Positions 8,298 to 62,643 of a stretch of DNA of 64,000 nucleotides are shown piece by piece (the stretch's first letter is position 1; each line of letters opens with the position of its first letter). The notes beneath the pieces were generated by a model. It made no database searches. It worked only from the letters and a program-made list of their open reading frames with translations, and was not told the DNA's origin. The position numbers and the translations under genes are program-made. Source of the DNA: Candidatus Omnitrophota bacterium (lineage in GTDB: Bacteria > Omnitrophota > Omnitrophia > Omnitrophales > Aquincolibacteriaceae); NCBI GenBank assembly GCA_019052695.1, contig JAHQRI010000001.1, forward strand, positions 7,755 to 71,754, given 5' to 3'.

Positions 8298-8819
8298 ATG
8301 AAAGCCAGGGCCATGGAAAAAGTCCAGCATGCGCATTTTATGAAGGAAGCCATCAAGCAGGCGGTGATCGCTCTGGAAAAGGGCGAGGTGCCCGTTGGAG
8401 CGGTGGTGGTCTGGAAGAATAAGATCGTCGCGCGGGCATATAACCAGATGGAAATGCTGCATGATCCGACGGCCCACGCGGAAATGATCGCGCTCACGCA
8501 AGCATCAGAAGCCCTGAGCCAGATGCCGGAAGCCAAGCCCGCGCAGACCAAAGAACACCGCGGGTCTCTTGAGGGCGCGACGCTGTATGTCACCCTCGAG
8601 CCGTGCCCCATGTGCGCCGGGGCGCTTGTGATGACGAAATGCACGCAACTGGTCTACGGAGCCCGGGATGCGAAAGCTGGGGCGTGCCACAGCCTTTACC
8701 ACATCACCGAAGACGACCGGCTGAATCACCGCGTGAAAGTGACCGGCGGGGTGATGGCGGATGACGCGAAATTTCTCTTGGGTGAATTCTTTAAGACATT
8801 GCGGAAAGATAAAAGATAG
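8298..8819 (+). CDS. tadA: tRNA adenosine(34) deaminase TadA
   Basis: HAEMIAL and LEPCPMCAGAL are the CDA-fold zinc-binding H-A-E and PCxxC motifs. Confidence 0.85.
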   Translation: MKARAMEKVQHAHFMKEAIKQAVIALEKGEVPVGAVVVWKNKIVARAYNQMEMLHDPTAHAEMIALTQASEALSQMPEAKPAQTKEHRGSLEGATLYVTLEPCPMCAGALVMTKCTQLVYGARDAKAGACHSLYHITEDDRLNHRVKVTGGVMADDAKFLLGEFFKTLRKDKR

Positions 8820-8888
8820 CACAACGCTCAACGATGAAGCCTTATATTCATTGTGCGTTGCGCGTGTCACGTTGTGCTGTTTTTTTTG
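8820..8888 (+). terminator. heptamer-repeat hairpin (CACAACG.../...CGTTGCG) plus T8 run downstream of tadA
   Basis: Inverted heptamer arms immediately after the TAG stop, followed by tgttttttttg. Confidence 0.5.
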
Positions 8889-13715: not shown

Positions 13716-13792
13716 GCGCAACGCACAACGCGCAACGGTCAACGATAGATAGGCACAAAGCCACACGCCACATGCCACACGACGACAAGAGC
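13716..13792. repeat. heptamer repeat block: 4 CGCAACG-type units then CACAAAG/CCACACG units (left inverted-repeat arm)
   Basis: cgcaacgcacaacgcgcaacggtcaacg ... cacaaagccacacgccacatgccacacg. Confidence 0.6.
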
Positions 13793-13795: not shown

Positions 13796-14308
13796 CTAGT
13801 CGTCGATGCTTTTATAGAGTTTCCAGAGCAATCCTCCAACCTGGTCCCTTGTTTCGAAGATGGCCCGATGTTGTTCGCTCCCCACGTAGCCTAGCTTTAA
13901 AGCGAAGTCGAGTAAATATTCGATCTCCGATAGAGATCCTAGAGCTATGTTGACGTATTGTTTAAATTCTTTTCGGTTTTGGCGGCCATTTCCTTCCACA
14001 AGGTTCGTAGGAACGGATAAAGCAGCGCGACGCATCTGGGATCGGACGCCGTAAGTTTCATCCCGAGGGAAGGATTCGGTGGCCTTGTAGATTAAGAAGG
14101 CTAGTTCGTCGGCCCTTTGCCACGCGATCAGTTTCTTGTAACCTTTTTCCCGTCGCGAAACTTCCGCGGGAGTTCCTTCTGCCGGAGCAGATTGCTCCAC
14201 AAGATTTTCTTGGGGCTTGGAGACTGAGCCATAGGGTTGTTTTTTAAAGAAAGTCTTGTGGCTTTGTGGCGTGTGGCCTTGTGGCATGCGATGATCCGTT
14301 TCGTTCAT
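13796..14308 (-). CDS. four helix bundle protein (23S rRNA intervening-sequence protein family)
   Basis: Core LIAWQRADELAFLIYKATESFP ... LSEIEYLL. AAGGAG SD 6 nt ahead of the ATG. The N-terminal ~60 aa, including PQGHTPQSHKT, are read through the right inverted repeat. Confidence 0.7.
   Translation of the reverse strand: MNETDHRMPQGHTPQSHKTFFKKQPYGSVSKPQENLVEQSAPAEGTPAEVSRREKGYKKLIAWQRADELAFLIYKATESFPRDETYGVRSQMRRAALSVPTNLVEGNGRQNRKEFKQYVNIALGSLSEIEYLLDFALKLGYVGSEQHRAIFETRDQVGGLLWKLYKSIDD
14254..14288. repeat. right inverted-repeat arm (CTTTGTG/GCGTGTG units), reverse-complement-related to 13753..13783
   Basis: cttgtggctttgtggcgtgtggccttgtggcatgc. Confidence 0.55.
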
Positions 14309-14309: not shown

Positions 14310-16064
14310 TTACTCTCCTTGTTTGATTGGTGTAGTTTTCGAGTCCCGAGGGGCGAGTCCCGAGTCCCCGTCTCCCGCTACCGGTCGAAAAATCCACAGC
14401 TGATTTAAGTCCGGCCTCTTCCGGCAGAGTCGCTCCAACCGCTTGCTAAAAAAACCGTTCGTCATGCCGTCGAGCAGCGCAGTCAGTTCGTCGATCCGCA
14501 GGAGCCCGTCCAGGTGTTCCTGTTCGGAGGCGGGCGGCGTGAAGAGAAGATCGATCTGGAGGCGCCGCCGTTCGTAATAAACGCGAGTGACCTCGGAGAG
14601 CAGATCGTTGCGGAGTTCGACCATCATTTTTTCCCGGGAATCGATGGAGGTTTGGTCGGAACTGTAGAGGATGTCTCCCAGGTCCCAGCTGACGCGGGCG
14701 TCCCAGCCTTTGTCGGTGTCGTTGGGGCCGTAAATGAAGCGGTCCGGATCGTTCGTCCCGCCTCGGTCGAGATCGATGTTGTTCCCGGTCGAATAATCCC
14801 TGCCGAAAGAAAAGGTCGGAAGAAGACCTGCGGCGCGTGACGCGACGTGCCAACGTTTGATCTTGCCGTTCGAAACGTCGGCGTAACGAATGACCGCCTT
14901 TTGGACCTCCCGGGCGCTCGGTTCAAGATGCACGAGCTCCCGGAAAAGGGACAAAACTTCCGGGGGCGGCGCCGGCACGGGCGACAAAGAAATCTCTTCC
15001 GGAGCGATCCGGAATTGCATGAGCCCCTCAGGCGTGATCGCCGCAAGAGATTCCTGCGCGCCGCGCAGCAGGGCCATGCTCTCGGTATCGGTTTGCGCGA
15101 GACCTTTGAACAGGGCTTCCCAAGCGTTACGGGCAGGGGAAAAGGTGTAGATCCCCCGTGGCGTCGCGGCGTAAAGGCGGTCGGCTTTTTCGGAATGCGC
15201 GAGTTGACGGATGTTCGTGCTCTGAAGCCCGCTGGAAGGGAGCGCGTGCCAGCTGAACCCGCGGTCTTTGCTCTCGAAGACGCCCTCGGCGGTGCCGAGC
15301 CAAAGTGTATTGGGGTCCGACTTGGCGACGATCAGGTCGAAGAGCTTTGTGGGGAGCGGCGATGCCGCTTCTTCCTCCCGGAACACCGTCTCCGCGAGAT
15401 CGGAGAAGGAGGAAGATGCCGCCGTCTCAAAACTTCCCGGCAGCGCGAAGGTCTGACGGATCTCGTCCGAAGGCTTCAGGACATAAAGCGTGCGTGATCC
15501 CCCGATGAAAAGACGGTCCGCGGCGTAAGTCAGGATAAAAACGGGGCGTCTCGCCGCAAAATAACGGGACCGGGACCAGGTTTTTCCCGCATCCCTTGTT
15601 TCCCAAAGGCCTGTTTGAGTTCCGAGAAACCAGCGGTTCGGGTCCTGGGGGTCGACGGTGAATGAAAGAAGGTCCCCCATGCCGTCCGCGCGATCCGCGT
15701 GGACTTTTTGCCAGCGGTCCTTTTTGAGCTCGCCCATGAAAATATTTCGTTCCGTCAAAATGAACAGATGATCCGGCAAATAATCAAAAGAAAAGATGCG
15801 GCGGACCGGAGCCTGGGTGCTTCCCGCGGACCAAAGGGTTTGCCAACGGCCGGTCTTGGGGTCGTTCTCGAAAAGCTGATGGCTTGAACTTGCCAGGATC
15901 TTGGAGGGCTCGTGAGGATGAGGGAGGACACAAGTCAGGCCGCCGGGACCGGGCGGTTGGACCGGTTTTTCCCAGTTCGCGTGCCCCGCCGGGAGGTGAG
16001 CAAATGCCAAGAACGATCCGAACACGAATATTCGTTTCCACACCGGCGTTATTCTTTTTTTCAT
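14310..16064 (-). CDS. secreted BNR/Asp-box repeat beta-propeller-like protein
   Basis: Signal peptide MKKRITPVWKRIFVFGSFLAFA after an AAAGGAG RBS. The track ORF starts at 16136. SxDxGxTW-like boxes: RDAGKTWSRS, KDRGFSWHAL. Confidence 0.55.
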   Translation of the reverse strand: MKKRITPVWKRIFVFGSFLAFAHLPAGHANWEKPVQPPGPGGLTCVLPHPHEPSKILASSSHQLFENDPKTGRWQTLWSAGSTQAPVRRIFSFDYLPDHLFILTERNIFMGELKKDRWQKVHADRADGMGDLLSFTVDPQDPNRWFLGTQTGLWETRDAGKTWSRSRYFAARRPVFILTYAADRLFIGGSRTLYVLKPSDEIRQTFALPGSFETAASSSFSDLAETVFREEEAASPLPTKLFDLIVAKSDPNTLWLGTAEGVFESKDRGFSWHALPSSGLQSTNIRQLAHSEKADRLYAATPRGIYTFSPARNAWEALFKGLAQTDTESMALLRGAQESLAAITPEGLMQFRIAPEEISLSPVPAPPPEVLSLFRELVHLEPSAREVQKAVIRYADVSNGKIKRWHVASRAAGLLPTFSFGRDYSTGNNIDLDRGGTNDPDRFIYGPNDTDKGWDARVSWDLGDILYSSDQTSIDSREKMMVELRNDLLSEVTRVYYERRRLQIDLLFTPPASEQEHLDGLLRIDELTALLDGMTNGFFSKRLERLCRKRPDLNQLWIFRPVAGDGDSGLAPRDSKTTPIKQGE

Positions 16065-21320: not shown

Positions 21321-21339
21321 TTGTTACCGGGGGGACAGC

Positions 21340-24488: not shown

Positions 24489-24504
24489 ACCCTTCCGAAG
24501 AATA

Positions 24505-24542
24505 AAAAAACGCGAGACCGTTGAACGGCCTCGCGTTTTTTT
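24505..24542. terminator. bidirectional rho-independent terminator
   Basis: aaaaaaacgcgag..ctcgcgttttttt. Serves pyrE on + and the convergent secreted-protein gene on -. Confidence 0.7.
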
Positions 24543-24568
24543 ATTCTCCCGCTGCTGTGAGCGCGGGA

Positions 24569-31156: not shown

Positions 31157-34100
31157 ATGGATTTTCCCTTAAGTGTGAAACGGTCCCTAGCGGTGACGGT
31201 GGCGGTCTGTTTTTTCGTGACCAGTCTGCCCGTCTCTCGTTCGTTCGCTGCGGCGGCTGTAGAGCCCTTCAGGGCACCATCCCAGCTGGACATTCCCATG
31301 GCATGGGGCAAGGTGACGGACATTGTCCGCCAGCCAACCGAAAATTCACCGCTTTTGATCCACATCCAGGAAGCCCACGCCAATTACGACGCTCAAAGGA
31401 ACATCCGGGATCTATTAAAGCATCTTGCCGAACACTACGGGGTCCGGTTGGTACTTCTGGAAGGCGCGGGCAATCAGCTTAATCCGGATCTGTTCCGATT
31501 TTTTCCCGATGAACCCGTGCTGCAGCAAACCGCGAACGACAAGCTCATGCGGGCGGGATTGCTTACCGGTGCCGAGACATTTTTGATCGACGAAGGAAAT
31601 GCCTCGAAAGCGGAAGGGTGGGGCGTTGAAAGGGCCGATCTGTACGCCAAGAACCGGGAGGATTTTAAGCAGGTCTACGAAGGCCGCAAGCTGTCCGCGG
31701 GATTTCTGGAAGATTTTTACCTTCGCTGGCAAAAATACGCATCACTTTTTTTGAGTAAGCCTCTCAGGGAATTTTTGTCCAAAGAGACTGCCTTTGAAGA
31801 GGATACATTGCCTCTCGCGGACTGGATGAACTTTCTTAGAACAGCGGCAGCACGGGAATTGAATATTGACCTCGAGAATGTTCGGGAACAGGCCGATTGG
31901 CCGGTTCTTGTCCGCTATTTCCGTCTCAAAGCGATCGACCCCAAGATCGACGTGCAAAAAGTCGAAGCGGAAAAGAAGGCATTTTTTGAACAAGTTCAAA
32001 AAATCGTAACTCGTTCCTCGGGACTCGGGACTCGAGAAACAAAGGATTCAAACAAGTCCCGAGGAACTAGTCTCGAGTCTCTTTTAGCAGAAGTTGAAGC
32101 GATCCTTGAACAGGCGAAAACGCACGACCTGCCCCTCTACAAAACCCGTTTCGTTTTTGAAAGATTGCTTGACCGGCTTCCGGAGGATTTTTCTTTCGAT
32201 ACTTATCCGGCTCTCCGGCTTTATCTCCAGCAGATCGTCCTTATGAGTGAACTTCAAGGGGATGCTTTGCAGGAGGAGATCAAGACCCTGAGCGGTAAGC
32301 TGACGGAAGTTCTCAGTGAGACAGAAAAAGACAGACGGTTTGCAGCGATCCTGCGCGATTTCCGGCTCCTTAAAAAACTTTTCCGGCTTGAGTTAAACCG
32401 TGGTGAATACCGTGACATTCTCATGCGCAAGATCACGCCCGGAAAAATTCTTCAGGAGCTCAGGGCCCAGGACCCAAAAGCGGAGGATCTCCCCCAAGAC
32501 CCTTCAGCCAGGTTCCGAAAGCTCGAAGCTCTTTATGGGACGGCAACCCGCTTTTACGAGGGAGCGATCGAGCGTGAAGGTGCGATGATGGAACGGGTGT
32601 TTGCAAGGATGCAGGAGCAGAAACAGACCAAGGCGGTGCTGATAACCGGCGGTTTTCACACCGAGGGCCTCAAGGAAAAAGCGGTCCGCGAGGGAAGCTC
32701 CTACATTGAGATCACGCCCCACATCGGCGAGATCACTTCTCATGATCGGGAAAATTATTTACGGGCCCTGCTTGGCAGAAATCTCGGCGTAACACCTGAC
32801 TACCGGTCAAGCGGGCGCAACGCCCAACGCGCAACGCAGGACAAAACCGTCGCGCTTCGAACATTGAGCGTTGAACGAAGCGAAATCGCGGCCCTGCTTC
32901 GTGGCGATATCCCTTTTTTAAAAGAAACGTCACGGGCTTGGCGCAGAGAGCTGGCAGAATTCGGAGCGGTTCTTTCCGAGCATTTGAGACAGATCACCAG
33001 CTCCGAAAAAGCCCGGGGGGCGGTCAACCACTACATAGCCGGGGCCGTTCGTGTTCCGTCTTTTGACGCCATGAAACGCCGTTCCGAAACGCGGGAGAGC
33101 GTTAAAGAGCTATCCGGGAAGGTCCTCAGAATTCCGGAACTGATGCTCCAACTTCCGCTTGAACCCGGGACTGAAGCCCTGGAAGGAACGCGCCGCATGG
33201 TAGGGCCGCTTGAAAAGGCGGCGCGACTGTTGGAGCCCCTCCTGGAGAGTTACGGGATCGGCAGCATTTGGCCTCACAACAGTCTTTTTGAAATGGGGGA
33301 ACTGTCCACCCGGATCCATCAGGTCCCCGACTCTGGCGAACACTTTCTGGTTTCCACGAACGGTAAAACGACCGTCAGGGTCGCGGGGTATGAAACAAAA
33401 CAAAAGGCTCTGGGGAACCGGGTTCTCCGCGACGACAAAGGGAACGCTTATTCTATTCGGGGAATGCGGAAGCTCAATCCCCGTTTGTCGGATTCGGCAA
33501 CGGAACAAGGGAACGCCGCAAAAACGGCAGAGCAGCTCATCGCTTTGAACAGAAAAGCCCGCAGTCTCGGGATCCGGACCGTGGCGGATTTTATCCCTGA
33601 GCTCGCGCCGGAAGCGATCAATGATTACAACCTCGATTGGACTTTTCATGAAAAACTTTCGCCGGGGGAAACGCAGTATTTCAACAGTCTTCCGGAAGAA
33701 ATAAAACAGTCCTACATCAACAGCAGCGTTCGTAAATGGGGGGGCGCTTTCTTCGCCAGGAGGTTGGGAAAATGGGGCAATGAAGAGATCGCCATGGTCC
33801 GTCATTTTCCCGGTCTCGGGAGCGGGCAGAACGTGGACCAGGCGCTCCTTAATGTTTTTGTTCCGGCGGTACAGAATTATTACAAGGACTCGCTTCGCTT
33901 TCTCATAGATCTGGGCTTTGACGCGGTCAGGATCGATATGGCGTCCTATCTTCTCGGGAAGAACCTGATCCGGTTCGTGAACGACAAGGGCCTGAGGTCG
34001 GATGTGCCGATGGAAGGGGAGCCTTTGAGGGAGATCATCCGGTATGCCAAGGACTACGCGTTCCAAAAGGGACGTTCTTTTGAGGTCGTGGCCGAAATTT

Positions 34101-37100
34101 ATGACGAGGAAGACCGGAATGCCTTGATGAACACGGGTGTTGACGTCGGGACCGATGTTCGCACCTACGATAACAGTTTTTTTGAAGAGCTTTTCAGATT
34201 CTCCCAAGATCCAGAGGCCCCGGCGGCGGACCTCGCGAGAATGATCGTGGAAAAGATCCTTCATAAGCTCGGGGATCCCGAGAACCGCGAAAATTTTCTC
34301 GCTTATTTTTCAAACCATGATCAAACCCCTCTTGCGGTGATGGCGGATCATAACAAAGAGATCGGAAAGAACTTCTCGTTGGCCGGCGTGACCGCGCTTT
34401 TGCTTGTGGGGGCTTATCTGGCGGAACCTTTCCTCAGCTTTTTTTTGACGCTCCGGGATTCTCTGGGGCAACGGGGCGATATCCTGCCGACCGTCGGCGG
34501 GGACATCAAGGACCATCGGGCCGACCTTGGGGGGAGGCACGCGCATCCGTTCCTCGAAACATCTCGCGAACTGACCGTCAGGACACATATCGAAAAGTTG
34601 GAAACCGCGATCCGAAAATCGTTTGCGTCGAAATTCTTGAAAGAACTTCACGCGGCCGCGAAAGGGACGGGGCAGACTTACATAAGGTTTCTGGAGAACG
34701 AGGATCCGGGCCGCGTCGCGAGTTTGGGTTGGCGGACCGTAAGCGGGGAATGGGTGGTCTTCGCGGTCGATCTCAGGCCTCATCAGGGTCCGCTCCATCT
34801 CAAACATATCGAATCTCCGGTGTTTCCCAAGGAAGCAGGTTCTCTGCAGGAATGGGAAGCCAAGGACGCGCTGACCGGTTCCAGTTTCGGAATTATATTC
34901 AAACGAGAAGGAGAGGCGACCCATCCTAGGATCCGGAATATTTCGTTCGGACAGGAAAGCGCCAACTACCGGCTGATCGTAATTACCCCGAAAGAGCATA
35001 AGAAACCCACCGAAAAGGTCCGCAACGAAAGAAAGAGGATGAAAAACGCGAACCAATTGAAACCTAAGGTAATCAACGAGCTCGATAGCATTGCCCGAGG
35101 CAGCGCGAAGGGCTATGAGTTTTTGATGCACCCCGCTTTTGAAAATTACTCGAACGCGCACAAAAAACAAGCAAGGGCCTACTTGCAGTTGCTAGCCGGA
35201 TCCTCGAATGATCTCATGGACATTTTAAAAGGCGCCCAGGAATTTCTCCGGAGTTACTACGCTAACATTGAGCGCATTCGCGAGAAATACGAAGAGACCG
35301 AGGAAGAAGCGTCCTTCGCGGTCAAGAAAGGGCCGCCCCTGTGTTATTTTGGGGGAAAGGACTTTGAGGGTTTTGAAAAGTTGTCGCCCGCGGATTTTTT
35401 AGAATCCCAGGGGGTTTCCGTCGGGGAGCTAAAAAACAGCGAGGCCAAGTTCAATTTGAGACAAGCCATACCCGCGACTTCGAGAACATTGGTCTTGGGG
35501 AAAAGCCTCGAACTTCCCAGGGCGAAGTCTTTGAACGCGGAAACGCTGAACCAACTGCTCCGAAGCCAGGGAGTGGAATATATTTCTGACATCACAGATA
35601 TCGCGTTTTATAAAATTCCCCGCTCCGAATTGCGTCAGGGTGATTTGCTTCCTCGCGCAGTCTCCGGCCTGATCTCGGGGGTCGCCGGCGGCAGCGTTCA
35701 AACGGTCATGGAGCTGAAACGTTCCGAGCTAAGGGATGAGAAGTTCCGGGGTTCCTACGAAGTGACCGAAGATGACAAAGGGCGAATCGTGATGCCCGCG
35801 CCGCTCAGGAAAAAGATCGCCGAAGACCTCGTGGGTGAAGTTGAGAAATATACCGATGAGTTCGGGCAAGAGCAGATCCTGTTCCGGATCTGGGAGGCGT
35901 CCGCCTGGGAAGAGAATTTCAAACAGGGTCTTCCGAAAGATAAGACAAAAGCCAGGGCCTATAAGGATCGGGAGTATGCCCGGATCTTTGATGTGGAGCT
36001 TTATGGTGAGGCCGGAAGGCTGAATTTGGCCGAAGTTCGCGCCAGGGGTCTTTTAAGCGGACCCGGGACCAAGTTTTTAGTCCAAGGGGCCGGAGATTCG
36101 ATCATTCTCAAGCCCAAGACCGCGCGCGCCGAACTGCGGACAGTTTCCCCCAAAAGGGGGCTTGAAGCTTACACCGTGGTCAGCCGCCAATTAGAGGCCG
36201 GCCTGGACCGGAGTATTTTGGAAGAAGTCCGTAAAAGTTTAGCGGACCGTTTCTCCGGGATGGGGAAAAGCTGGATCCGGCGGTATGTAGGGCTTGTGGC
36301 CGAGTTGACATTGACCGGCGGATTGGGCGCTCTCATGCATGACCTTTTCCCGGCGTGGGCACAAGCTTTGGGGATCAAGAACAAAGACCGCAAGGGGCTG
36401 ATCGCGATCAATGCGATCTATGACAATATCAAAGGACAGCAATATGCCAAATATCTTCCCGATGAAGTCAGGCAGGGGAAGACGACTTTGGGAGAATATT
36501 TGCGCGGCGTTTTGAAACGCGATGAAAGCCTGAACCTTGCGTTCGGTATGGACTTCGGGGAAGATTTCCGCCGCAAGACCGCCGAAGAAAGGGCCTGGGC
36601 CGAGCAGTACGGAAATCCGGGATACAAGGAAGCGGCCCGGAAAACGGAGAATATCATCGGAAAGACCATCCGAGTGGATGTTTACCCGACCCAAACCCAT
36701 TTTAACCAGACGCCCAATTATTATATCGACGCTTACTTTCTTGACAGCGAGGGCAAGAAGGTCCACATTTTTGATGAAGTCTATCCCGACGCCCCGCACG
36801 GCCGCCCTAATCTTTGGCGTGATATTCACATGGCAGTTTACGGATGGGCCACCCAGCACTTGGTGCGCGAACTCCAGCAAAAAGGCGTTGTGAAGGACAA
36901 TATCCTCTTCGTGGACAATGAGGTTTTTGTGAGCACGCCGACGCCGCTGTTCCCGGACGCGGTCCACCATCACATCAACCACACGGTTTTTCGTCCCGGT
37001 CTCTACATGCCGAACGAAGCCTCTTATGAAATGCTGGGGTATCCCGAGATCCAGCGTAAATATATTACGAAGAACGGGAAGATCGACATCGTCAACGCCG

Positions 37101-40100
37101 TGGGGATATCGTCCCGCTTGATCACGGGGGTGGCGATCTATGAACATACGAAGGCTTTAGAAGAAGATGTGATGGCGGCCTTCCCCCATAAGCTGCAAGC
37201 TTTCAACAAGGACGGTGTCCGCAACACCAACGGTGTTTTGATGGAGCAATGGCAGCTGCCGGCTTTGAGGGACTTGATCAGCGCGCATAAAGAAAAACTC
37301 GGTTTAAAACCGCAGGCCGCGGACAAGAAAATTTTTGAGAAGATAACCGCTTCAGGACAAGAAATGGTCCTTGAAGAGTTCAAACAAAAAGCGGAATTTG
37401 CGAAGGCGACCGGAGTTCTCGAGCTTCTTTTGTGGCTCAAAGAGGACCAGAATTTTCCCGCATGGTTTGACGAGATCGGTCTGGCTTATGCGTCGCAATC
37501 CGGCCTGAAGAATATAGATGACCAGAAATTGGTCGAGGATTTCAGGGATGCGGTGGCCGCGGCGATGGTCGATCCCGCGGCATGGCAGGCACTCATGCAG
37601 CGGCAGGATCTTGTCTGGTTGAAAAACGCGTTGTTCGAAAATCCGATCCTTGCCAATGTCCGCCGGCAGGTACCCTATAAAGGGCCGGACAAATGGCTGG
37701 AGATCCTCGAGAAATTGAGGGTTGATCCGCAGGCGCTGGAAGAATTCAAACGGGACGCCCCGCGTGTGATCATCGGCGGCCGTGAATTTGGCGACGACGC
37801 GCACTGGATGTTCCTGAGGATCCAGTCGCTGGTGGAGGAACTGGGACTGAAGGACAAGATCGCGACGATCGAAGACTACAATATCTATATCGCCCCGGTC
37901 ATTTTCGGGGGTGTTTCAGGGTCGATGATGCTTTCGGACGAAAAGCTGGAAGCTTCCGCGACCAGCATGATGAAGGCGATGGCGAACATGGCGGCCCTGA
38001 TGGGGGTCTGGGGCGGGGCCAATCCCGAACTTTTTACGATCATTGATAAGAAGACAGGCCGTGAACTGAACGCCATCCGGGACAAGATCACTCACGATCA
38101 GCTGGTGGAAAAAATGGCGAGCGGGGAGTGGGAAGTCCCTAACGGATTTCTGGTCGCTTACAGCCAGGAGGAATACAGCAACCAAACGGGAGGGGAAAGG
38201 CGTCCTTCGACGGCCTCTCTCATTCAAAGCCTATACGATCTTAAAAAGACCTGCCGGGATCCTGGCAGCCGCCGCAACCTTCAATTTGCCGTGCTCCGGT
38301 CGACCCCCAATGTGGATATGGCTAAAGGACAGGCCATCGCCCACAAAGCGTTATGGGAAAAAACCATCCAGACCTTGCAAAAGGAAGACGAATTTTTTGA
38401 AAGCTTGGATATTTCAGCGGACGACGCGGAACAATTTCTCAAAAAATCACTTGCTCAAGAAGGAGGCCTGGAATTCCTTTGGCACGGCACGACCCAGGAC
38501 GCTTGGAATATTCACGGGATCTTGGGGTTCATTCAGGGATTCCGTCATCTGCGCATGAAAGGGAGGGAGAGTTACAACAGCGTTGCTTTTCATGCGTACA
38601 ATGGAAAAAAAGGGGACATTTTCACATACCTTGAAAAATTCTTCGAAGGGTTCGATGAAACCTTCATTCCCGTGACGCGAAAGCTCAAAGCGCTTTCAGC
38701 CCGGGCGCAAAAGGCGGGATCCCCGCAGGACAAAGTCCGTGCTAATTTGGAAGCTTTGGAGCTCGTCGAACGGCTTGCGGTCGCGATATCGTTCCATCTT
38801 TTCAAGCACTATGTGAAGACCGGCGATAAAAAAGCAGAGGCCTATTGGGCCAATCCTGCGGTCCGCGAAAACCTTTCGATCTATTTGGAGAAAAACGGCG
38901 TTCCTTTCAAATCGATCGCCAAGAATATCCGCGGGTATGCGGTGGACATAGAAGGACAGCGATATATCGTCGCGCTCAATTTCGGCGAGTTCGGTTTCCC
39001 GGGCGAAAAAGGGGAGAAGGCCTGGGGTTCCTTTTATGGCCGTGAGGCGCTCGATCATCTTTTAGAAAAACCGGAAGAAACGCACATTTACCAGGTGCTT
39101 GATGCGATCTCTGGGGAAGTTTATGGGAAATATTCTTTGCGCCAAATGGTCGAAACAATCCGGATCGGCGTCCCCTCTTTGGGCGCCCAGGTCCTGCAGG
39201 TCGTGGATTCCGGGGAACGGACCGAAGCATCAGAGGCTGCGCTGAGCGGGGATGTCCTGGGATATCTTGAAGCGTTAACGGCAGGCCGTCTTGTGAGCGA
39301 TGAGGTGCCGATCACACAGCTCCTTTTCAGGCAGGTCGTCGACGAAGGGACCGTTGTTGCCGGAAAGGGAGAGGAGGCCGGTCGAAAAAGGATCGTTGAT
39401 CCCACGAAGATGGAACCGTTGTTGAGCCGTGTGACGGGTCTTTCCAGGAAAGAGGCGGTCGAAAAATTCGGAGAAAAAGGGATCCCTCCCGTTATGGCCT
39501 TTATTGCGGTCCTGTCCCCGGCCGGTCTCGAGCAGATCAGGGATTGGAATGACGAGGTTTATACCGCGCTGAACGGGGTGATCCATCAGCCGCAAATTGA
39601 AAAGCTTCTTCAGGACGGCGCTCTTTGGTTCCACAAAACCGACCGCGCAAGCGCGCTGGTCATTTCAAAAAGCCTGGACGGGAAAAATGTGGTCGTCCCC
39701 ATCCATTTTTCCGCGACTCCTTTCCGTTCCGTTGACGGCAAGGCATGGTTCCGGGTTTCGGATTTTGACCGGTTGGGCGTTTTGCTTTCCGAAAACGGCA
39801 GGTACCAGGCCCGCAATGTTCTTGCCAATAAAGTCTATCCGCTTCAGCACGATCAAGAAAAGATCTCCGGCGAGAAGTGGTCCCTCGGCGTTCCCGTCGC
39901 GGTGCCGGAAGACCTGGGCGTTTTTCACGAACCTCTTTATCACTTTCAGGTCCTCGAGATCATTCCCGCCGTTTCTGAGCCGGTCCAGCGCTCGGAAATG
40001 CGGGAAGGTATCACGACCATTCCGAGGACGACGGAGGCCCTTATTGAAACGAATCGATCCATGGGCGGGGGAGCGGTACGGGGATTCCGCGGGGTCACGG

Positions 40101-40717
40101 ACAAGATCACCGGCGGGATCTGGTCGCTTACGGTCTACGCCTTCCATGCCGTAGAACTCACAGCATCGTTCTTTGGCCTGACAGCTGCCCCGGCCCCTGA
40201 GGCTTTTGATATCGCTGCGGTCCCTGCGACCCCTGAGGAAAAGAAACGTTTTGACGACGCCCGAAAGGTCCTGTTCGGCGGAAAGGCCTACGGGGATTCG
40301 GACGTTCTGATCCTTGCGCCGGAGTTCGGGGTCGATCTTGGCGCGGCGCTCCTCATGCGGAAGGTTGCCGGGGACGTTCCGGTCGCGGTGCTCGTGCGGG
40401 ATGATGCCGACCGCCGGTTCCTTGACCAGATCAACTCCGAGCTTGAAGCGGGGAACCGCCCGTTGATCTTTGCGGCAGGGACGCTCCGTGAGGCCGCCCA
40501 GTACCTGAGGAGGGCGGTGCGCGGGAAGATGAATATCAAGCCGATGGTTTACGCGGGAGAGAATAACCCTCAAGCCGATCTTTTGTTGCAGCAGTACGGG
40601 GACGCGGTGATCACCGTCACGCAGGGTATGTTCCGGAACTTCCTCAGCCTTGCCGGGATCAGCGAGACCGTGACCCGATTGCGCGACGAGTACCTCGCGC
40701 TTGCGCGCTCGGCGTAA
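31157..40717 (+). CDS. giant (about 3,186 aa) exported multidomain protein: TraB/GumN-like N-module, GH13-like domain, GT35 alpha-glucan phosphorylase-like domain
   Basis: 9.6 kb open frame. Signal peptide MDFPLSVKRSLAVTVAVCFFVTSLPVSRSFAAAA. GH13 regions GFDAVRIDMASYL, FEVVAEIY, FSNHDQ. GT35 motifs LTGGLGALMHD and EASATSMMKAMANMAALMGVWGG (PLP lysine). Confidence 0.6.
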   Translation: MDFPLSVKRSLAVTVAVCFFVTSLPVSRSFAAAAVEPFRAPSQLDIPMAWGKVTDIVRQPTENSPLLIHIQEAHANYDAQRNIRDLLKHLAEHYGVRLVLLEGAGNQLNPDLFRFFPDEPVLQQTANDKLMRAGLLTGAETFLIDEGNASKAEGWGVERADLYAKNREDFKQVYEGRKLSAGFLEDFYLRWQKYASLFLSKPLREFLSKETAFEEDTLPLADWMNFLRTAAARELNIDLENVREQADWPVLVRYFRLKAIDPKIDVQKVEAEKKAFFEQVQKIVTRSSGLGTRETKDSNKSRGTSLESLLAEVEAILEQAKTHDLPLYKTRFVFERLLDRLPEDFSFDTYPALRLYLQQIVLMSELQGDALQEEIKTLSGKLTEVLSETEKDRRFAAILRDFRLLKKLFRLELNRGEYRDILMRKITPGKILQELRAQDPKAEDLPQDPSARFRKLEALYGTATRFYEGAIEREGAMMERVFARMQEQKQTKAVLITGGFHTEGLKEKAVREGSSYIEITPHIGEITSHDRENYLRALLGRNLGVTPDYRSSGRNAQRATQDKTVALRTLSVERSEIAALLRGDIPFLKETSRAWRRELAEFGAVLSEHLRQITSSEKARGAVNHYIAGAVRVPSFDAMKRRSETRESVKELSGKVLRIPELMLQLPLEPGTEALEGTRRMVGPLEKAARLLEPLLESYGIGSIWPHNSLFEMGELSTRIHQVPDSGEHFLVSTNGKTTVRVAGYETKQKALGNRVLRDDKGNAYSIRGMRKLNPRLSDSATEQGNAAKTAEQLIALNRKARSLGIRTVADFIPELAPEAINDYNLDWTFHEKLSPGETQYFNSLPEEIKQSYINSSVRKWGGAFFARRLGKWGNEEIAMVRHFPGLGSGQNVDQALLNVFVPAVQNYYKDSLRFLIDLGFDAVRIDMASYLLGKNLIRFVNDKGLRSDVPMEGEPLREIIRYAKDYAFQKGRSFEVVAEIYDEEDRNALMNTGVDVGTDVRTYDNSFFEELFRFSQDPEAPAADLARMIVEKILHKLGDPENRENFLAYFSNHDQTPLAVMADHNKEIGKNFSLAGVTALLLVGAYLAEPFLSFFLTLRDSLGQRGDILPTVGGDIKDHRADLGGRHAHPFLETSRELTVRTHIEKLETAIRKSFASKFLKELHAAAKGTGQTYIRFLENEDPGRVASLGWRTVSGEWVVFAVDLRPHQGPLHLKHIESPVFPKEAGSLQEWEAKDALTGSSFGIIFKREGEATHPRIRNISFGQESANYRLIVITPKEHKKPTEKVRNERKRMKNANQLKPKVINELDSIARGSAKGYEFLMHPAFENYSNAHKKQARAYLQLLAGSSNDLMDILKGAQEFLRSYYANIERIREKYEETEEEASFAVKKGPPLCYFGGKDFEGFEKLSPADFLESQGVSVGELKNSEAKFNLRQAIPATSRTLVLGKSLELPRAKSLNAETLNQLLRSQGVEYISDITDIAFYKIPRSELRQGDLLPRAVSGLISGVAGGSVQTVMELKRSELRDEKFRGSYEVTEDDKGRIVMPAPLRKKIAEDLVGEVEKYTDEFGQEQILFRIWEASAWEENFKQGLPKDKTKARAYKDREYARIFDVELYGEAGRLNLAEVRARGLLSGPGTKFLVQGAGDSIILKPKTARAELRTVSPKRGLEAYTVVSRQLEAGLDRSILEEVRKSLADRFSGMGKSWIRRYVGLVAELTLTGGLGALMHDLFPAWAQALGIKNKDRKGLIAINAIYDNIKGQQYAKYLPDEVRQGKTTLGEYLRGVLKRDESLNLAFGMDFGEDFRRKTAEERAWAEQYGNPGYKEAARKTENIIGKTIRVDVYPTQTHFNQTPNYYIDAYFLDSEGKKVHIFDEVYPDAPHGRPNLWRDIHMAVYGWATQHLVRELQQKGVVKDNILFVDNEVFVSTPTPLFPDAVHHHINHTVFRPGLYMPNEASYEMLGYPEIQRKYITKNGKIDIVNAVGISSRLITGVAIYEHTKALEEDVMAAFPHKLQAFNKDGVRNTNGVLMEQWQLPALRDLISAHKEKLGLKPQAADKKIFEKITASGQEMVLEEFKQKAEFAKATGVLELLLWLKEDQNFPAWFDEIGLAYASQSGLKNIDDQKLVEDFRDAVAAAMVDPAAWQALMQRQDLVWLKNALFENPILANVRRQVPYKGPDKWLEILEKLRVDPQALEEFKRDAPRVIIGGREFGDDAHWMFLRIQSLVEELGLKDKIATIEDYNIYIAPVIFGGVSGSMMLSDEKLEASATSMMKAMANMAALMGVWGGANPELFTIIDKKTGRELNAIRDKITHDQLVEKMASGEWEVPNGFLVAYSQEEYSNQTGGERRPSTASLIQSLYDLKKTCRDPGSRRNLQFAVLRSTPNVDMAKGQAIAHKALWEKTIQTLQKEDEFFESLDISADDAEQFLKKSLAQEGGLEFLWHGTTQDAWNIHGILGFIQGFRHLRMKGRESYNSVAFHAYNGKKGDIFTYLEKFFEGFDETFIPVTRKLKALSARAQKAGSPQDKVRANLEALELVERLAVAISFHLFKHYVKTGDKKAEAYWANPAVRENLSIYLEKNGVPFKSIAKNIRGYAVDIEGQRYIVALNFGEFGFPGEKGEKAWGSFYGREALDHLLEKPEETHIYQVLDAISGEVYGKYSLRQMVETIRIGVPSLGAQVLQVVDSGERTEASEAALSGDVLGYLEALTAGRLVSDEVPITQLLFRQVVDEGTVVAGKGEEAGRKRIVDPTKMEPLLSRVTGLSRKEAVEKFGEKGIPPVMAFIAVLSPAGLEQIRDWNDEVYTALNGVIHQPQIEKLLQDGALWFHKTDRASALVISKSLDGKNVVVPIHFSATPFRSVDGKAWFRVSDFDRLGVLLSENGRYQARNVLANKVYPLQHDQEKISGEKWSLGVPVAVPEDLGVFHEPLYHFQVLEIIPAVSEPVQRSEMREGITTIPRTTEALIETNRSMGGGAVRGFRGVTDKITGGIWSLTVYAFHAVELTASFFGLTAAPAPEAFDIAAVPATPEEKKRFDDARKVLFGGKAYGDSDVLILAPEFGVDLGAALLMRKVAGDVPVAVLVRDDADRRFLDQINSELEAGNRPLIFAAGTLREAAQYLRRAVRGKMNIKPMVYAGENNPQADLLLQQYGDAVITVTQGMFRNFLSLAGISETVTRLRDEYLALARSA
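32815..32878 (+). repeat. CGCAACG heptamer hairpin element inserted in-frame in the giant CDS
   Basis: gcgcaacgcccaacgcgcaacg ... cgttgaacg. Encodes SGRNAQRATQDKTVALRTLSVERSE between the N-module and the GH13-like region. Confidence 0.6.
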
Positions 40718-40826
40718 CACAGGAAGAAGGAGGGAGTAAAGAGAAGGGCGCCAGGACTGGTTTTCACCATCCGCCATCCTATCTTGAAGTATTGACCGCT
40801 TTCCGGAGTTTACGTATAGTCTCTGC

Positions 40827-41735
40827 ATGTCCAAAACATCTTCCCAACTCATGCGCGTAGGGCACAGTCCCGATGCTGACGATGCGTTCATGTTCTACGC
40901 GCTGGCCAAACAAAAGATCCCGATGCGCGGGTTCGAAGTTGAACACGTCATTGAAGACATCGAAAGTTTGAACCAGCGCGCGTTCCGAGGGGAACTGGAG
41001 GTGACGGCGGTTTCCTGCCACGCGTACGCTTATTTGGCCGACCGGTACGCGGTCATGCGTTCCGGGGCAAGCGTCGGGGACAAGTATGGGCCCATTCTCG
41101 TACAACGCCCAACGCGCAAAGCGCAACGAGGAAACAAAAAAGCAGGCAAAGAACGTTGCGCGTTGAGCATTGCGCAAAAGAGAATCGCGATTCCGGGCAA
41201 ATTAACGACGGCCTATTTAACCCTTCAGCTTTATGCGTTGACCGTTGACCGTTGTGCGTTGCGCGGATTTGAACCGGTTTTCATGCCCTTCGACAAGGTC
41301 CTAGAGGCCGTCAAAAACGGAGAAGTGGACCTCGGGCTCGTGATCCACGAAGGACAGATCACGTTCGCGGAACACGGTCTTGAAAAATTTTTGGACCTTG
41401 GCACTTGGTGGCATGAGGAAACGGGACTGCCGCTGCCGCTTGGTGTTGATATCATCCGCCGTGATCTAGGCGAGGGTGTAATGAGGTCTTTTGCGGGCCT
41501 CTTCAAAGAAAGCATCGAATATGCCTTGTCTCACCGTCAGGAAGCTTTAGAATACGCGCTGCAGTTCGGCCGTGGGATCTCGCGAGAACTCAACGACCGT
41601 TTCGTTGGGATGTATGTCAATGACCGGACGGTGGATATCGGGAGGGACGGAGAGGCGGGGTTCCGCGCATTACTTGACCTGGCATACCAGCATAAGATCG
41701 TGCCCAACAAAATTAACTTTGATTTTATCGGTTAA
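40827..41735 (+). CDS. MqnA/MqnD-family (menaquinone via futalosine) protein
   Basis: MRVGHSPDADDAFMFYAL matches the GxSPCPNDTFxFxAL-type N-terminus. Start may be the ATG near 40851. Two heptamer-repeat insertions in-frame. Confidence 0.55.
   Translation: MSKTSSQLMRVGHSPDADDAFMFYALAKQKIPMRGFEVEHVIEDIESLNQRAFRGELEVTAVSCHAYAYLADRYAVMRSGASVGDKYGPILVQRPTRKAQRGNKKAGKERCALSIAQKRIAIPGKLTTAYLTLQLYALTVDRCALRGFEPVFMPFDKVLEAVKNGEVDLGLVIHEGQITFAEHGLEKFLDLGTWWHEETGLPLPLGVDIIRRDLGEGVMRSFAGLFKESIEYALSHRQEALEYALQFGRGISRELNDRFVGMYVNDRTVDIGRDGEAGFRALLDLAYQHKIVPNKINFDFIG
41099..41176 (+). repeat. CGCAACG heptamer hairpin element in-frame in the MqnA/D-like CDS; a second, arm-only copy at 41235..41265
   Basis: acaacgcccaacgcgcaaagcgcaacg ... 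cgttgcgcgttgagcattgcg. Encodes RPTRKAQRGNKKAGKERCALSIAQKR. 41235..41265 gcgttgaccgttgaccgttgtgcgttgcgcg encodes ALTVDRCALRG. Confidence 0.6.
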
Positions 41736-41738
41736 ATA

Positions 41739-41809
41739 GGCGCAATGCACAACGCGCAAAGCGCAACGTCTTGATTTTAAGTTGCGCGTCGAACGTTGAC
41801 CGTTGCGCG
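41739..41809 (+). repeat. CGCAACG heptamer hairpin element, intergenic
   Basis: gcgcaatgcacaacgcgcaaagcgcaacg tcttgattttaa gttgcgcgtcgaacgttgaccgttgcgcg. Confidence 0.65.
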
Positions 41810-41818
41810 AGGGGATAT

Positions 41819-42418
41819 ATGTCCAACGACGAATTACGAAGTAAGACCGTAGAGATCGCAAAAAAACACAAAGCCTCCTGGATCGAGCTCGGGCAGCATC
41901 TTTTTTCGATCTACAAGAACAAGATGTATAAAGAATGGGGTTATCAGGGCTTTGAGACTTATTGCCGCAAAGAACTCGGCATCAAGGAAACGACGGCCTC
42001 GAAACTCATTAAGTCCTACTCATTCCTTGAGAAAGAGGAGCCGCGCATCGTAAAACCCGAATTTTCTTCGGAGGAAACACCGCGGAAAATACCGGATTAT
42101 GAAGCGGTGAACCTTCTGCGGCTTGCCAAAGAGAACAAGAATATCCCGACGGGCGATTTCGCGGAATTGAGGCAAGAGGTCCTGAACGAAGGAAAAGAGC
42201 CCAAAGAGATCCGCGCGCAGGTAAAAAAGATCCTCGAAGCTCAGAAGCCCAAGGATACGGCGGAGGCGAAGGACCAGAAGCGGAACTCGGTGCTGCGGCG
42301 TTTGATCGGTTTTTTGAACGGCGCTAAGAAACAGCTGGAAGAGGAGGACCTTGTCCCGGATTACCTGATCAAGCAGATCGAGGCTTTAACGAGCAAGCTG
42401 GAAGACCAGTTGGAGTAG
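41819..42418 (+). CDS. hypothetical protein (charged, helical)
   Basis: Open frame with the ATG at 41819 (MSNDEL). No recognisable motif. Confidence 0.4.
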   Translation: MSNDELRSKTVEIAKKHKASWIELGQHLFSIYKNKMYKEWGYQGFETYCRKELGIKETTASKLIKSYSFLEKEEPRIVKPEFSSEETPRKIPDYEAVNLLRLAKENKNIPTGDFAELRQEVLNEGKEPKEIRAQVKKILEAQKPKDTAEAKDQKRNSVLRRLIGFLNGAKKQLEEEDLVPDYLIKQIEALTSKLEDQLE

Positions 42419-42454
42419 AAGCAATTTCATAGGCATAGGTGATCCCATAAGCGC

Positions 42455-42490
42455 CATGTCATTCCCGCATGTAGTAAGCGGGAATCCAGA
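42455..42490 (+). terminator. hairpin attcccgc/gcgggaat plus T-rich tail
   Basis: tcattcccgcatgtagtaagcgggaatccagaagtcgttttgtgttttgg. Confidence 0.5.
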
Positions 42491-42598
42491 AGTCGTTTTG
42501 TGTTTTGGATCCCCGATAAAAACACTCGGGGATAACAATCTAAAGTCTAATACCGCAAAAGGATTGTAAAACCAGTTGTAGATACAAAAGGATGTACG

Positions 42599-42871
42599 AT
42601 GGAACTCTTCATGAAGATCTCGGCGATCGCGGGGGCGATCCTTCCGCTTTTTAATATCCCGCTCGTCCTCAGGATCATTCAGCGCAAGTCGGCGGACGAC
42701 ATCAGCCTCGTCTGGGTCTTCGGAGTGTGGGCCTGCATCCTCTTGATGTCTCCGGCGGCTTTGCTTTCCCCGGACGTTGCATTCCGCTTGTTCGGGGTCA
42801 CGAACCTTGTTTTTTTTACGGCCGTCGTGCTTGCGACTGTTAAATACCATCATCGGTTCAAAAAGAAATGA
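42599..42871 (+). CDS. SemiSWEET-like PQ-loop sugar transporter
   Basis: NIPLVLRIIQRKSADDISLVWVFGVWACILL matches the PQ..RxxKTKSxxDISL core of bacterial SemiSWEETs. Three TM helices, about 90 aa. Confidence 0.55.
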   Translation: MELFMKISAIAGAILPLFNIPLVLRIIQRKSADDISLVWVFGVWACILLMSPAALLSPDVAFRLFGVTNLVFFTAVVLATVKYHHRFKKK

Positions 42872-42872
42872 C

Positions 42873-42937
42873 GTGCAACGTTCAACGGTCAACGCACAAC
42901 GTGAAATCGGGGCGTTGCGCGTTGCGCCTTGCGCGGG
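42873..42937 (+). repeat. CGCAACG heptamer hairpin element, intergenic
   Basis: gtgcaacgttcaacggtcaacgcacaacg tgaaatcgggg cgttgcgcgttgcgccttgcgcggg. Confidence 0.65.
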
Positions 42938-42943
42938 TTTAAT

Positions 42944-43333
42944 ATGCATCCTACCTATAAAAAAATGCTCAAAGCGCTTCAGAACAAAGAAGCTAATCGG
43001 CCGTCTGGGGTGAAAGAGGCGGACGATTGGGAGCTGTATATCCTGAGGTGCGGCGATAATTCTTTTTACACGGGGGTCACCAACAACCTCGAGCGGCGTC
43101 TCAAAATGCACCAAACGGGCAAGGCCTCACGCTACACCCGTGTCCGGCGGCCGGTGGAGATGATCTACCATGAAAAATGCGGCACCCGGACGCAGGCTCT
43201 TGTGAGGGAATGTGCGGTGAAAGAGCTGCCGCGGAAGAAAAAAGAAGAACTTATTTCGGGTGCAACGCGCAATGCACAACGATCAACGAAAAAGCGAAAA
43301 AGAAAGCGTTGCGCTTTGCGCGTTGTGCGTTGA
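42944..43333 (+). CDS. GIY-YIG nuclease family protein (YhbQ-like), second copy
   Basis: WELYILRCGDNSFYTGVTNNLERRLKMHQTGKASRYTRVRRP. The last ~25 codons (ATRNAQRSTKKRKRKRCALRVVR) are encoded by a heptamer repeat element. Confidence 0.65.
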   Translation: MHPTYKKMLKALQNKEANRPSGVKEADDWELYILRCGDNSFYTGVTNNLERRLKMHQTGKASRYTRVRRPVEMIYHEKCGTRTQALVRECAVKELPRKKKEELISGATRNAQRSTKKRKRKRCALRVVR

Positions 43334-43336
43334 ACT
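43259..43336 (+). repeat. CGCAACG heptamer hairpin element spanning two convergent gene ends
   Basis: tgcaacgcgcaatgcacaacgatcaacg aaaaagcgaaaaagaaag cgttgcgctttgcgcgttgtgcgttgaac. Confidence 0.65.
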
Positions 43337-50009: not shown

Positions 50010-50060
50010 GTGCGCAACGGACAGATGACGCATGTTCTGATTTTTCTTTGCGTTGGGCGG
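50010..50060 (+). repeat. degenerate CGCAACG heptamer hairpin element
   Basis: gtgcgcaacgg ... gcgttgggcgg immediately after the stop. Overlaps the RBS of the ABC ATPase gene. Confidence 0.4.
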
Positions 50061-55173: not shown

Positions 55174-55233
55174 ACGCGCAACGGGCAACGGAAAACAAAG
55201 AGACAAGACGTTGCGTATGGCGCGTTGTGCGCC
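55174..55233 (+). repeat. CGCAACG heptamer hairpin element between thyA and folA
   Basis: cacgcgcaacgggcaacg ... cgttgcgtatggcgcgttgtgcgcc. Confidence 0.6.
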
Positions 55234-55733: not shown

Positions 55734-55804
55734 GGACCCGGAGAAAGAACGACCCGAAAAATCGAAAAATGTGGCCTGGGGATCGAGTCCCCGGACAAGG
55801 AATA

Positions 55805-56916: not shown

Positions 56917-56980
56917 CGCAACGCGCAAGGCTCGACGTACAACGTAAAAATAAATCCGTTGTGCGTTGACCGTTGTACGG
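56917..56980 (+). repeat. CGCAACG heptamer hairpin element
   Basis: gcgcaacgcgcaaggctcgacgtacaacg taaaaataaatc cgttgtgcgttgaccgttgtacgg. Confidence 0.65.
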
Positions 56981-57485: not shown

Positions 57486-57553
57486 CGCAACGCACAACGG
57501 ATAGCGTCCAACGCCCAGAACACACGTGCAAAGCTGTGAGCTTTGTGTGTTGG
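57486..57553 (+). repeat. composite heptamer element (CGCAACG arm plus CACACG/CAAAGC..GCTTTG hairpin) between convergent genes
   Basis: gcgcaacgcacaacgg ... cacacgtgcaaagctgtgagctttgtgtg. Confidence 0.55.
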
Positions 57554-57565
57554 GGAAGATCCGAG

Positions 57566-60237: not shown

Positions 60238-62578
<2,341 letters not shown>

Positions 62579-62582: not shown

Positions 62583-62643
62583 TTCGCTCGACGCTCAACG
62601 GGCTCGCGCGCAACGTTTTCGTTGTGCGTTGCGCGTTGTGCGG
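62583..62643. repeat. CGCAACG heptamer hairpin element in the atpA-atpG intergenic spacer
   Basis: cgctcaacgggctcgcgcgcaacg ttttcgttg tgcgttgcgcgttgtgcggg. Confidence 0.6.

Follow-up and report, generated by a model that had tools for sequence, protein, structure and literature searches.

Short heptamer repeats form a family of paired, hairpin-building elements in an Omnitrophota genome

Results

An element built from heptamers

The DNA analysed here is a 64-kb stretch (64,000 nt, hereafter the window) of contig JAHQRI010000001.1 from a Candidatus Omnitrophota bacterium (assembly GCA_019052695.1). A giant open reading frame (ORF), mqnA, a conserved 199-aa gene, a 90-aa gene and a small GIY-YIG nuclease gene follow one another in it, with thyA, folA and the atp genes further on, and dispersed among the genes of the window are copies of a short element made of CGCAACG and CGTTGCG heptamers, which is the subject of this report. 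The first-pass annotation had listed 14 copies, taken them for a real family of imperfect palindromes assembled from heptamers, and suggested that they expand by slippage or are moved by a transposase. We find heptamer runs at all 14 positions (Table 1), and the composition of the window bears out the family. CGCAACG occurs 32 times, against 13.8 ± 3.5 times in shuffled sequences, and is enriched beyond chance; its in-phase doublet, CAACGNNCAACG, occurs 25 times where 0.15 ± 0.44 would be expected. Successive CAACG or CGTTG motifs are separated by 7 nt in 25 cases and by 14 nt in 7, other values being met almost never, and a scan for self-similar runs returned 12 at period 7 and 0-1 at each other period from 4 to 12.

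The element consists of a 5' arm of 2-5 heptamer units, an unrelated A/T-rich loop and a 3' arm of complementary units, the CAACG run always coming first and the CGTTG run second. All that the copies have in common is the unit NNCAACG, that is, a 5-nt core per heptamer. Unit number, unit order, flanks and loops all vary, and the CGCAACG copies compared conserve neither a full-length sequence nor an end motif nor a loop. Every copy had been described as a long imperfect hairpin, and this is true of nine of the 14 (8820, 41099, 41739, 42873, 43259, 55174, 56917, 61651 and 62583), which fold at -21 to -32 kcal/mol into stems of 20-30 bp interrupted by small internal loops and closed by loops of 11-25 nt. 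Three others are weak or partial (32815, 50010 and 57486), and two are one-armed runs (13716 and 41235), the latter able to pair over a long range with the 41099 arm. The 2.3-kb span in which six copies had been said to cluster holds five of those listed.

A protein 100% identical to the MqnA-like protein of the window is encoded on NCBI contig JBEFFE010074625 (GCA_040364335.1) and in two Logan assemblies, and the best named relatives without exception belong to Candidatus Omnitrophota. These three independent assemblies differ from the window by 0-6 substitutions and no indels, and since they carry identical elements the copies are not artefacts of mis-assembly. A search of Rfam matched a tRNA only, so that no RNA family there fits the hairpins, and a protein database search with a synthetic heptamer-coded peptide gave no match, the query being too short and too low in complexity.

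Copies inside genes and paired arms in mqnA

Four of the 14 copies (32815, 41099, 41235 and 43259) lie in frame within ORFs, namely mqnA, the GIY-YIG gene and the giant ORF, which had been overlooked in the first-pass annotation. The giant ORF (31109-40717, 3202 aa) has an N-terminal part without Pfam annotation, and the ORFs beside mqnA in relatives range from 2000 to >10000 aa. The mqnA gene is intact (Pfam VitK2_biosynth, 239 bits). Its two insert peptides, of 16 and 8 residues, fall exactly at gaps of the solved homologs 1ZBM and 2CZL, AlphaFold gives a predicted local distance difference test score (pLDDT) below 50 at site 2, where the first insert lies, and the reading frame of the inserts is preserved in seven lineages.

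The two mqnA inserts, one after YGPILV and the other after LQLY, are complementary arrays placed around a conserved coding core of 57 nt (RIAIPGKLTTAYLxLQLY). We compared them with syntenic loci of related Omnitrophota (MqnA ~70-84% identical in alignment; handles beginning with L denote individual loci). Three families of arms were found at these sites: a CAACG type in the window, L004 and L206, a GGANGG type in L205, L207 and L208, and a GCACCAC type in L209. The 5'-type arm always occupies the first site. Duplex energies of the arms block by family, and cognate pairs beat shuffled ones in four loci, with z scores of -4 to -7. Some close relatives have an mqnA without the second insert. In L125 site 2 is filled by a CCTGGCC...GGCAGG stem, and a similar 21-nt mini-hairpin (CCTGCCTGCCGGCAAGGCAGG) at 10914-10934 of L205 is nested in the 5' arm of the hairpin orthologous to the one at 41739 of the window.

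Copies outside genes and the question of termination

As had been claimed for most of the copies, ten of the 14 start 0-11 nt past a stop codon; in three, a TAG stop abuts the first unit. Co-directional copies terminate a few bases upstream of the next ribosome-binding site. Several extragenic copies lie inside operons or directly before a ribosome-binding site, and others face a convergent gene. The two copies reported from atp operon spacers are indeed located there, in atpA-atpG and atpG-atpD. Behind thyA, two tandem dihydrofolate reductase paralogs occupy 55254-56311, a heptamer hairpin lying between thyA and the first of them.

Hairpins of such stability directly behind stop codons could be ordinary rho-independent terminators that happen to consist of repeats. 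A T8 follows the copy at 8820, in relatives a hairpin lies ahead of the promoter-like site upstream of mqnA, and hairpins without U-tracts have been proposed to act as terminators in some phyla. We nevertheless hold this explanation to be quite unlikely, since a sense-strand U-tract is present at only one of the ten extragenic copies (8820), the copies within the atp operon and between thyA and folA reach the next ribosome-binding site, and four copies lie within ORFs. Some copies had been said to precede a T-run; this stands for 8820, whereas the T-run at 61651 sits on the strand antisense to the atp genes. The long stems and wide loops are also unlike the near-perfect A-run/GC-stem/T-run palindromes at 21291-21321 and 24499-24547, which have the look of canonical bidirectional terminators and indicate that ordinary terminator design is also used by this organism. 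Further, a terminator scan did not call the heptamer hairpins, and terminator-like sites were not clearly enriched in the window (33 vs 24.1 ± 4.2 in shuffles). The missing U-tracts and the positions within operons or before ribosome-binding sites thus do not support the view that the copies behave like terminators as a class, and 8820 is the sole copy that resembles an intrinsic one.

Table 1. Heptamer elements and arrays in the window, with the evidence for each (CAACG, element of the CGCAACG/CGTTGCG family; fold energies in kcal/mol; z, z score).
Position	Strand	Feature	Basis
8818..8888	+	CAACG hairpin followed by T8, directly after the stop of a TadA-like deaminase gene	-22.6 kcal/mol, z -2.6
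13716..13781	.	One-armed CAACG run (4 units, 13716-13744) adjoining a GCCACAC run (13758-13781), flanked by rlmN and a convergent four-helix-bundle gene	no hairpin, z 0.0
14255..14285	.	TGTGGCC/CTTGTGG run, complement of the GCCACAC run at 13758-13781	repeat scan
14340..14368	-	GGGACTC-family run within a 608-aa ORF, in its C-terminal coding part	repeat scan
32004..32078	+	Hairpin of a second unit family (CTCGGGA/TCCCGAG; GGGACTC arrays), in frame in the giant ORF	-31.8 kcal/mol, z -4.2
32815..32885	+	Partial CAACG element read in frame with the giant ORF, inside a 28-aa stretch missing from the L205 ortholog	fold, alignment
41099..41176	+	CAACG hairpin at insertion site 2 of mqnA, in frame and encoding a protein loop that is absent from solved homologs and predicted to be disordered	fold, structure alignment, AlphaFold
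41235..41265	+	Run of four CGTTG units at insertion site 3 of mqnA, in frame; pairs at long range with the arm at 41099, on the other side of the conserved core	duplex, alignment
41739..41810	+	CAACG hairpin occupying the spacer from mqnA to the conserved 199-aa gene, up to just short of the ribosome-binding site	-32 kcal/mol, z -2.4
42872..42936	+	CAACG hairpin between the 90-aa gene and the GIY-YIG gene	-30.6 kcal/mol
43259..43334	+	CAACG hairpin that gives the GIY-YIG gene its basic C-terminal tail and its stop (TGA inside CGTTGAA); abuts a convergent M24 peptidase gene	-31.2 kcal/mol, z -2.8
50010..50056	+	Marginal copy of a single CGCAACG plus a single GCGTTGG, flanked by the Bax1-I and ABC transporter genes	z -1.4
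55174..55232	+	CAACG hairpin between thyA and folA	fold
56917..56979	+	CAACG hairpin that begins at the TAG stop of the gene for a metallo-beta-lactamase-fold protein, ahead of a TPR gene	-25.8 kcal/mol, z -3.4
57486..57562	+	Pair of CAACG units located at a TAG stop, then a different hairpin; between convergent TPR and superoxide dismutase genes	fold
61649..61706	-	CAACG hairpin in the atpG-atpD spacer, reaching the atpD ribosome-binding site; T-run antisense	-28.5 kcal/mol
62583..62643	-	CAACG hairpin in the atpA-atpG spacer	fold

Other heptamer families in the window and its relatives

The CGCAACG elements do not stand alone. At least four heptamer families, all but the first of them passed over earlier, are present in the window (CGCAACG, GGGACTC, GCCACAC and remnants of a GGATGG type), at least nine across the syntenic relatives and at least five in L206, the units of the relatives including GGAAGGC/CCATCC, GTACGGC, GGACCAC, GGGCCAC, AAACTCT, AAATCAA, CGGGGAA and CGCAACG. 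Within each family the core is conserved and the variable positions are fixed. In this Omnitrophota lineage the CGCAACG/CGTTGCG elements make up one family of a wider hairpin class. In the window, inverted GCCACAC (GCCACAN) arrays at 13758-13781 and 14255-14285, ~480 nt apart, bracket a gene for a 23S_rRNA_IVP/bAvd-like four-helix bundle (13796-14308, minus strand), an arrangement that recalls the stem around an intervening-sequence ORF.

Over 175 kb of the clade we counted 74 arrays of period 7, against 1-9 at any other period, and for 38 of the 74 a complementary run lies within 120 nt. A metagenome scan with an MqnA profile yielded mostly relatives from other phyla, at ~50% identity, which served as a background control only; no period-7 excess was seen in 705 kb around mqnA from these phyla. 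Under a strict definition the clade has 15 CAACG hairpins, all of them CAACG-first and none CGTTG-first, and the 705-kb control has none. Arrays of three in-phase CAACG units occur in species genomes elsewhere: among the matches listed are Verrucomicrobiae, Acidobacteriota, Planctomycetota, Cyanobacteria, Bacteroidota and others, and most of these listed arrays are direct, often beside other heptamer arrays, while some form hairpins. Viruses were considered as carriers and rejected, because viral contigs hold direct CAACG arrays but show the hairpin arrangement at only 1 of 120 loci.

Turnover at orthologous sites

The relatives also reveal that one unit can be replaced by another at the same site, another feature that the earlier reading had missed. 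Of the nine relatives examined, eight have a hairpin in the spacer between mqnA and the 199-aa gene, as does the window; L126 showed none. Four of these nine hairpins use CGCAACG (the window, L205, L206 and L207), and five use other units or sequences, among them GGACCAC in L004, CGGGGAA in L208, GGGCCAC in L209 and a non-heptamer stem in L125. In more distant relatives orthologous hairpins vary in unit number. Around residue 300 of the giant protein, a GGGACTC hairpin in the window corresponds to a CGCAACG hairpin of similar length in L205. Upstream of mqnA, a promoter-like TTGACC-17-TATAGT site at 40792-40820 is kept in sequence and position in L004, L205, L206 and L209; just upstream of this TTGAC-17-TATA site the giant-gene/mqnA spacer of L205, L206 and L209 carries a heptamer hairpin, and that of the window carries two CCATCC-type units only.

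Two sites testify to gain. In L206 a 184-nt AAACTCT/TTAGAGT hairpin (14934-15117) separates two transketolase-subunit genes and also provides the downstream ribosome-binding site; in the window (45450/45451) and in L004 the same genes directly adjoin each other (TAAATG). The second is the 32815 stretch of the window (Table 1). No direct duplication is evident at either, the boundaries at 32815 being rough and the alignment there poor; the target-site duplication that, together with terminal inverted repeats, marks a miniature inverted-repeat transposable element was not seen at these two sites.

Several other repeats and rearrangements lie nearby. Downstream of the 199-aa gene, the spacer at 42419-42598 contains two hairpins of a different type, short and perfect, ATTCCCGC...GCGGGAAT and ATCCCCGA...TCGGGGAT, which among all fetched loci recur only in the same species, the first also in L205. 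The adjoining segment with the 90-aa and GIY-YIG genes (42599-43333) is inverted relative to L206 (11709-12523), L207 and L208; it is flanked by heptamer hairpins each time, and these could supply the inverted homology for the inversion. Another small GIY-YIG gene (9023-9265) lies directly upstream of a tRNA-Ser(TGA) gene at 9270-9358. Within 9270-9715, a tandem repeat of 165 nt (2.3 copies, 95% matches) begins inside the 3' end of this tRNA and duplicates that end (AATCCTACTCCCTCCG), and could be an integration remnant or a structured repeat.

Are the elements mobile palindromes?

The first-pass annotation had called the elements REP-like (repetitive extragenic palindromes) and had named a REP-associated tyrosine transposase (RAYT) elsewhere in the genome as one possible source of them; in such a reading, a fixed palindrome is spread by this enzyme. 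There is something to be said for this: the palindromes are repeated, imperfect, mostly extragenic and placed just after genes; the 15:0 polarity and the blocks shared between copies (see below) imply that copies derive from one another; the 32815 stretch missing in L205 and the 184-nt insertion in L206 are gain events; and the search for an enzyme covered only 64 kb of the genome. We nevertheless regard it as very improbable. The conserved ~20-40-nt palindrome with an end motif that characterizes REPs and REPINs (their paired, hairpin-forming arrangement) is replaced here by the NNCAACG unit alone, and the elements are not strictly extragenic, as the in-frame copies show. Within single genomes this architecture recurs in many unrelated unit families, which would require as many cognate enzymes, and insertion of a whole element cannot yield one-armed runs or arms split across a conserved coding core. 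Finally, no Y1 (IS200/IS605-like) or any other transposase was found among the ~58 ORFs scanned in the window, nor any transposase in the gene tables of six syntenic loci.

How the arrays may grow, spread and persist

The other origin suggested at first, expansion by slippage, agrees with the strict excess of period 7 in the clade. Moreover, the neighbouring elements at 41099, 41739 and 43259 have blocks of 19-22 nt in common, including the degenerate unit CGCAAAG, in both orientations; because multi-unit blocks are shared and polarity is fixed, we conclude that copies derive from one another by block copying. We therefore read the elements as heptanucleotide simple-repeat hairpins that grow by a slippage-type process, are copied between sites, are tolerated or mildly useful as stems at cistron ends and for the most part are not canonical terminators, a reading to which we give a probability of about 0.5. 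Arrays would grow and shrink through slippage in heptamer register or unequal exchange, a bias that equals the known bacterial tendency toward heptanucleotide simple repeats, and blocks would be copied from site to site by a process resembling gene conversion. The elements are seen to persist where insertion is tolerated: a few bases past stops, in intercistronic spacers and, translated in frame, in protein surface loops. On transcripts, the stems would act at cistron ends in 3'-end protection, processing or weak termination, true intrinsic termination occurring only occasionally; such a role, modelled on that of enterobacterial REPs, is put forward with lower confidence.

Five observations weigh against the reading just given. 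The arms of a copy fit each other no better than arms taken from other copies (-31.7 kcal/mol for true pairs vs -34.7 for chimeras). When 47 co-directional spacers were folded on both strands, there was no strand bias (27 vs 20, p = 0.55). The hairpin is dispensable between the transketolase genes, as seen from the window and L004 vs L206, and neutral or selfish persistence fits this as well as function does. Two near-identical strains display zero change in unit number over 12.7 kb, and the arrays are consequently not hypermutable on short time scales. Slippage with gene conversion, moreover, does not readily explain how, in mqnA and at the giant-gene site, the two arms come to be exchanged together while the core between them stays.

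From the first two of these observations it follows that no selection for perfect stems is visible at the variable positions, nor any for one RNA strand. Arm-to-arm covariation, a simple template-switch correction and selection for perfect stems were accordingly set aside, true pairs being no better than chimeric ones, and so was strand-specific RNA selection, sense and antisense of the 47 spacers folding equally well.

A neutral or selfish reading of the hairpins is plausible. In its strongest form the elements are a functionless by-product of a mutational process that seeds heptamer hairpins wherever they are not lethal, and their positional conservation reflects saturation of tolerant sites. 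By our count from the array and gene tables, nearly every spacer of L206 of at least 40 nt holds a hairpin, and with such saturation shared occupancy of orthologous spacers is to be expected. The transketolase spacer, arms without covariation, the lack of strand asymmetry and the location of in-frame copies in a disordered loop all agree with it. We still think it unlikely, though deserving of serious weight, because random seeding would hardly place complementary arms of three families, with constant polarity, at two sites round the conserved core of mqnA, and because hairpins end reproducibly a few bases ahead of the ribosome-binding site. Long palindromes, besides, are usually costly at the DNA level.

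The paired arms raise a different possibility, that inverted arrays are written, or overwritten, in concert round a retained segment (a short loop, the 57-nt mqnA core, or the whole bAvd-like gene at 13796-14308) by some unrecognised mechanism, which might be a repeat-writing or mobile system or else strong selection for long-range intragenic stems. We consider this doubtful; if true, it would mean that the elements are no passive simple repeats. Its more specific version, in which a dedicated repeat-writing or mobility system (for example a structure-specific nuclease coupled to templated synthesis, or an activity like that of a retroelement) lays an array and its complement on either side of the retained segment, seems to us improbable. 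Both arms have been swapped together in mqnA and at one giant-gene site, inverted GCCACAC arrays bracket an entire gene, and each family keeps a conserved core and fixed variable positions, all of which speak for a dedicated system. Two GIY-YIG genes and the four-helix-bundle gene adjoin hairpins in the window, small GIY-YIG genes are hairpin-flanked in the window and five of six syntenic relatives (L004 and L206-L209; L205 ends inside the gene), and the segment with the 90-aa and GIY-YIG genes is inverted between lineages. Against such a system, no candidate enzyme was identified in the sequences examined, no GIY-YIG genes lie near CAACG arrays in 864 kb from other phyla, and the presence of heptamer arrays, some of them hairpins, in many phyla argues for a general process. 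A tblastn search of the same 864 kb around CAACG arrays gave 0 GIY-YIG and 2 four-helix-bundle matches, and we rejected a general link of either gene to the arrays across phyla.

Discussion

In this Omnitrophota lineage heptamer repeats are displayed with unusual clarity, as paired hairpins of fixed polarity whose units are swapped at the same site and which are tolerated in frame in a conserved enzyme. Orthologous sites with different units, together with paired arms round a coding core, amount to natural experiments that can distinguish selected RNA structures, selfish DNA and enzyme products, and the concerted replacement of both arms round a retained core is the part most worth following up. 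On the practical side, the elements lengthen proteins and provide stop codons in Omnitrophota genomes, and may mislead gene callers and terminator predictors.

The likeness to rho-independent terminators lies in a G+C-rich stem-loop just past a stop codon, with a U-tract at one copy (8820); the heptamer hairpins differ in their much longer stems and larger loops, in the lack of a sense U-tract at nine of ten extragenic copies and in the position of several within operons. Rickettsia palindromic elements (RPEs) are likewise palindromic repeats lying in frame in conserved genes, where they add a surface peptide without destroying the protein, and insertion at tolerant surface positions is what we see in mqnA (gaps of 1ZBM and 2CZL, low pLDDT at site 2), with further in-frame copies in the GIY-YIG gene and the giant ORF. 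RPEs are, however, elements of 100-150 bp with a family consensus, whereas the heptamer copies are modular, have no consensus past the heptamer core and may place their arms at two separate sites of one gene.

REPs, bacterial interspersed mosaic elements (BIMEs) and REPINs of Enterobacteria and Pseudomonas resemble our elements as repeated imperfect palindromes at gene 3' ends and within operons, and the likely role of REP/BIME stems as stabilisers of mRNA 3' ends is the best functional analogy for the heptamer hairpins. They differ in having a conserved 20-40-nt sequence and a cognate RAYT gene, against a 5-nt core, varying unit number, many families and no RAYT found in the window. By analogy, then, the function of the elements may be most like that of REP/BIME stems at cistron ends, and that of the coding copies most like RPEs, the sequence consensus of both being absent.

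Bacterial heptanucleotide repeats have been on record since 1990. Simple repeats of heptamers are over-represented in bacterial genomes, slippage of the polymerase being the proposed cause, and in Xanthomonas such repeats are retained between a given pair of genes even as their length and sequence change, some of them as inverted pairs (PMC4692102). TAACTGA arrays occur in Beggiatoaceae and mixed heptamer arrays in cyanobacteria and Bacteroidetes (PMC4679880). In a full-text search we found no paper that names both heptamer repeats and Verrucomicrobia, Planctomycetes or Omnitrophica.

These heptanucleotide simple sequence repeats (the short tandemly repeated repetitive sequences, or STRRs, of cyanobacteria, GGGAATC in Xanthomonas, GGGGAYT in Nostoc and TAACTGA in Beggiatoaceae) are the closest known system. 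They share with the Omnitrophota elements head-to-tail 7-nt units with an excess specific to period 7, several unrelated unit families per genome (at least four in the window and at least five in L206) that are dispersed and mostly intergenic, the retention of the same spacers in relatives while length and sequence vary, and occasional inverted pairs. The published cases are mostly long direct arrays, whereas those described here are short (2-5 units), are accompanied by a complementary run in 38 of 74 cases, have a constant CAACG polarity, and lie at stop codons rather than upstream of start codons, some being translated in frame. The family thus belongs with the heptanucleotide simple repeats, as a paired, hairpin-forming variant of them, and not with the RAYT-mobilised REPs.

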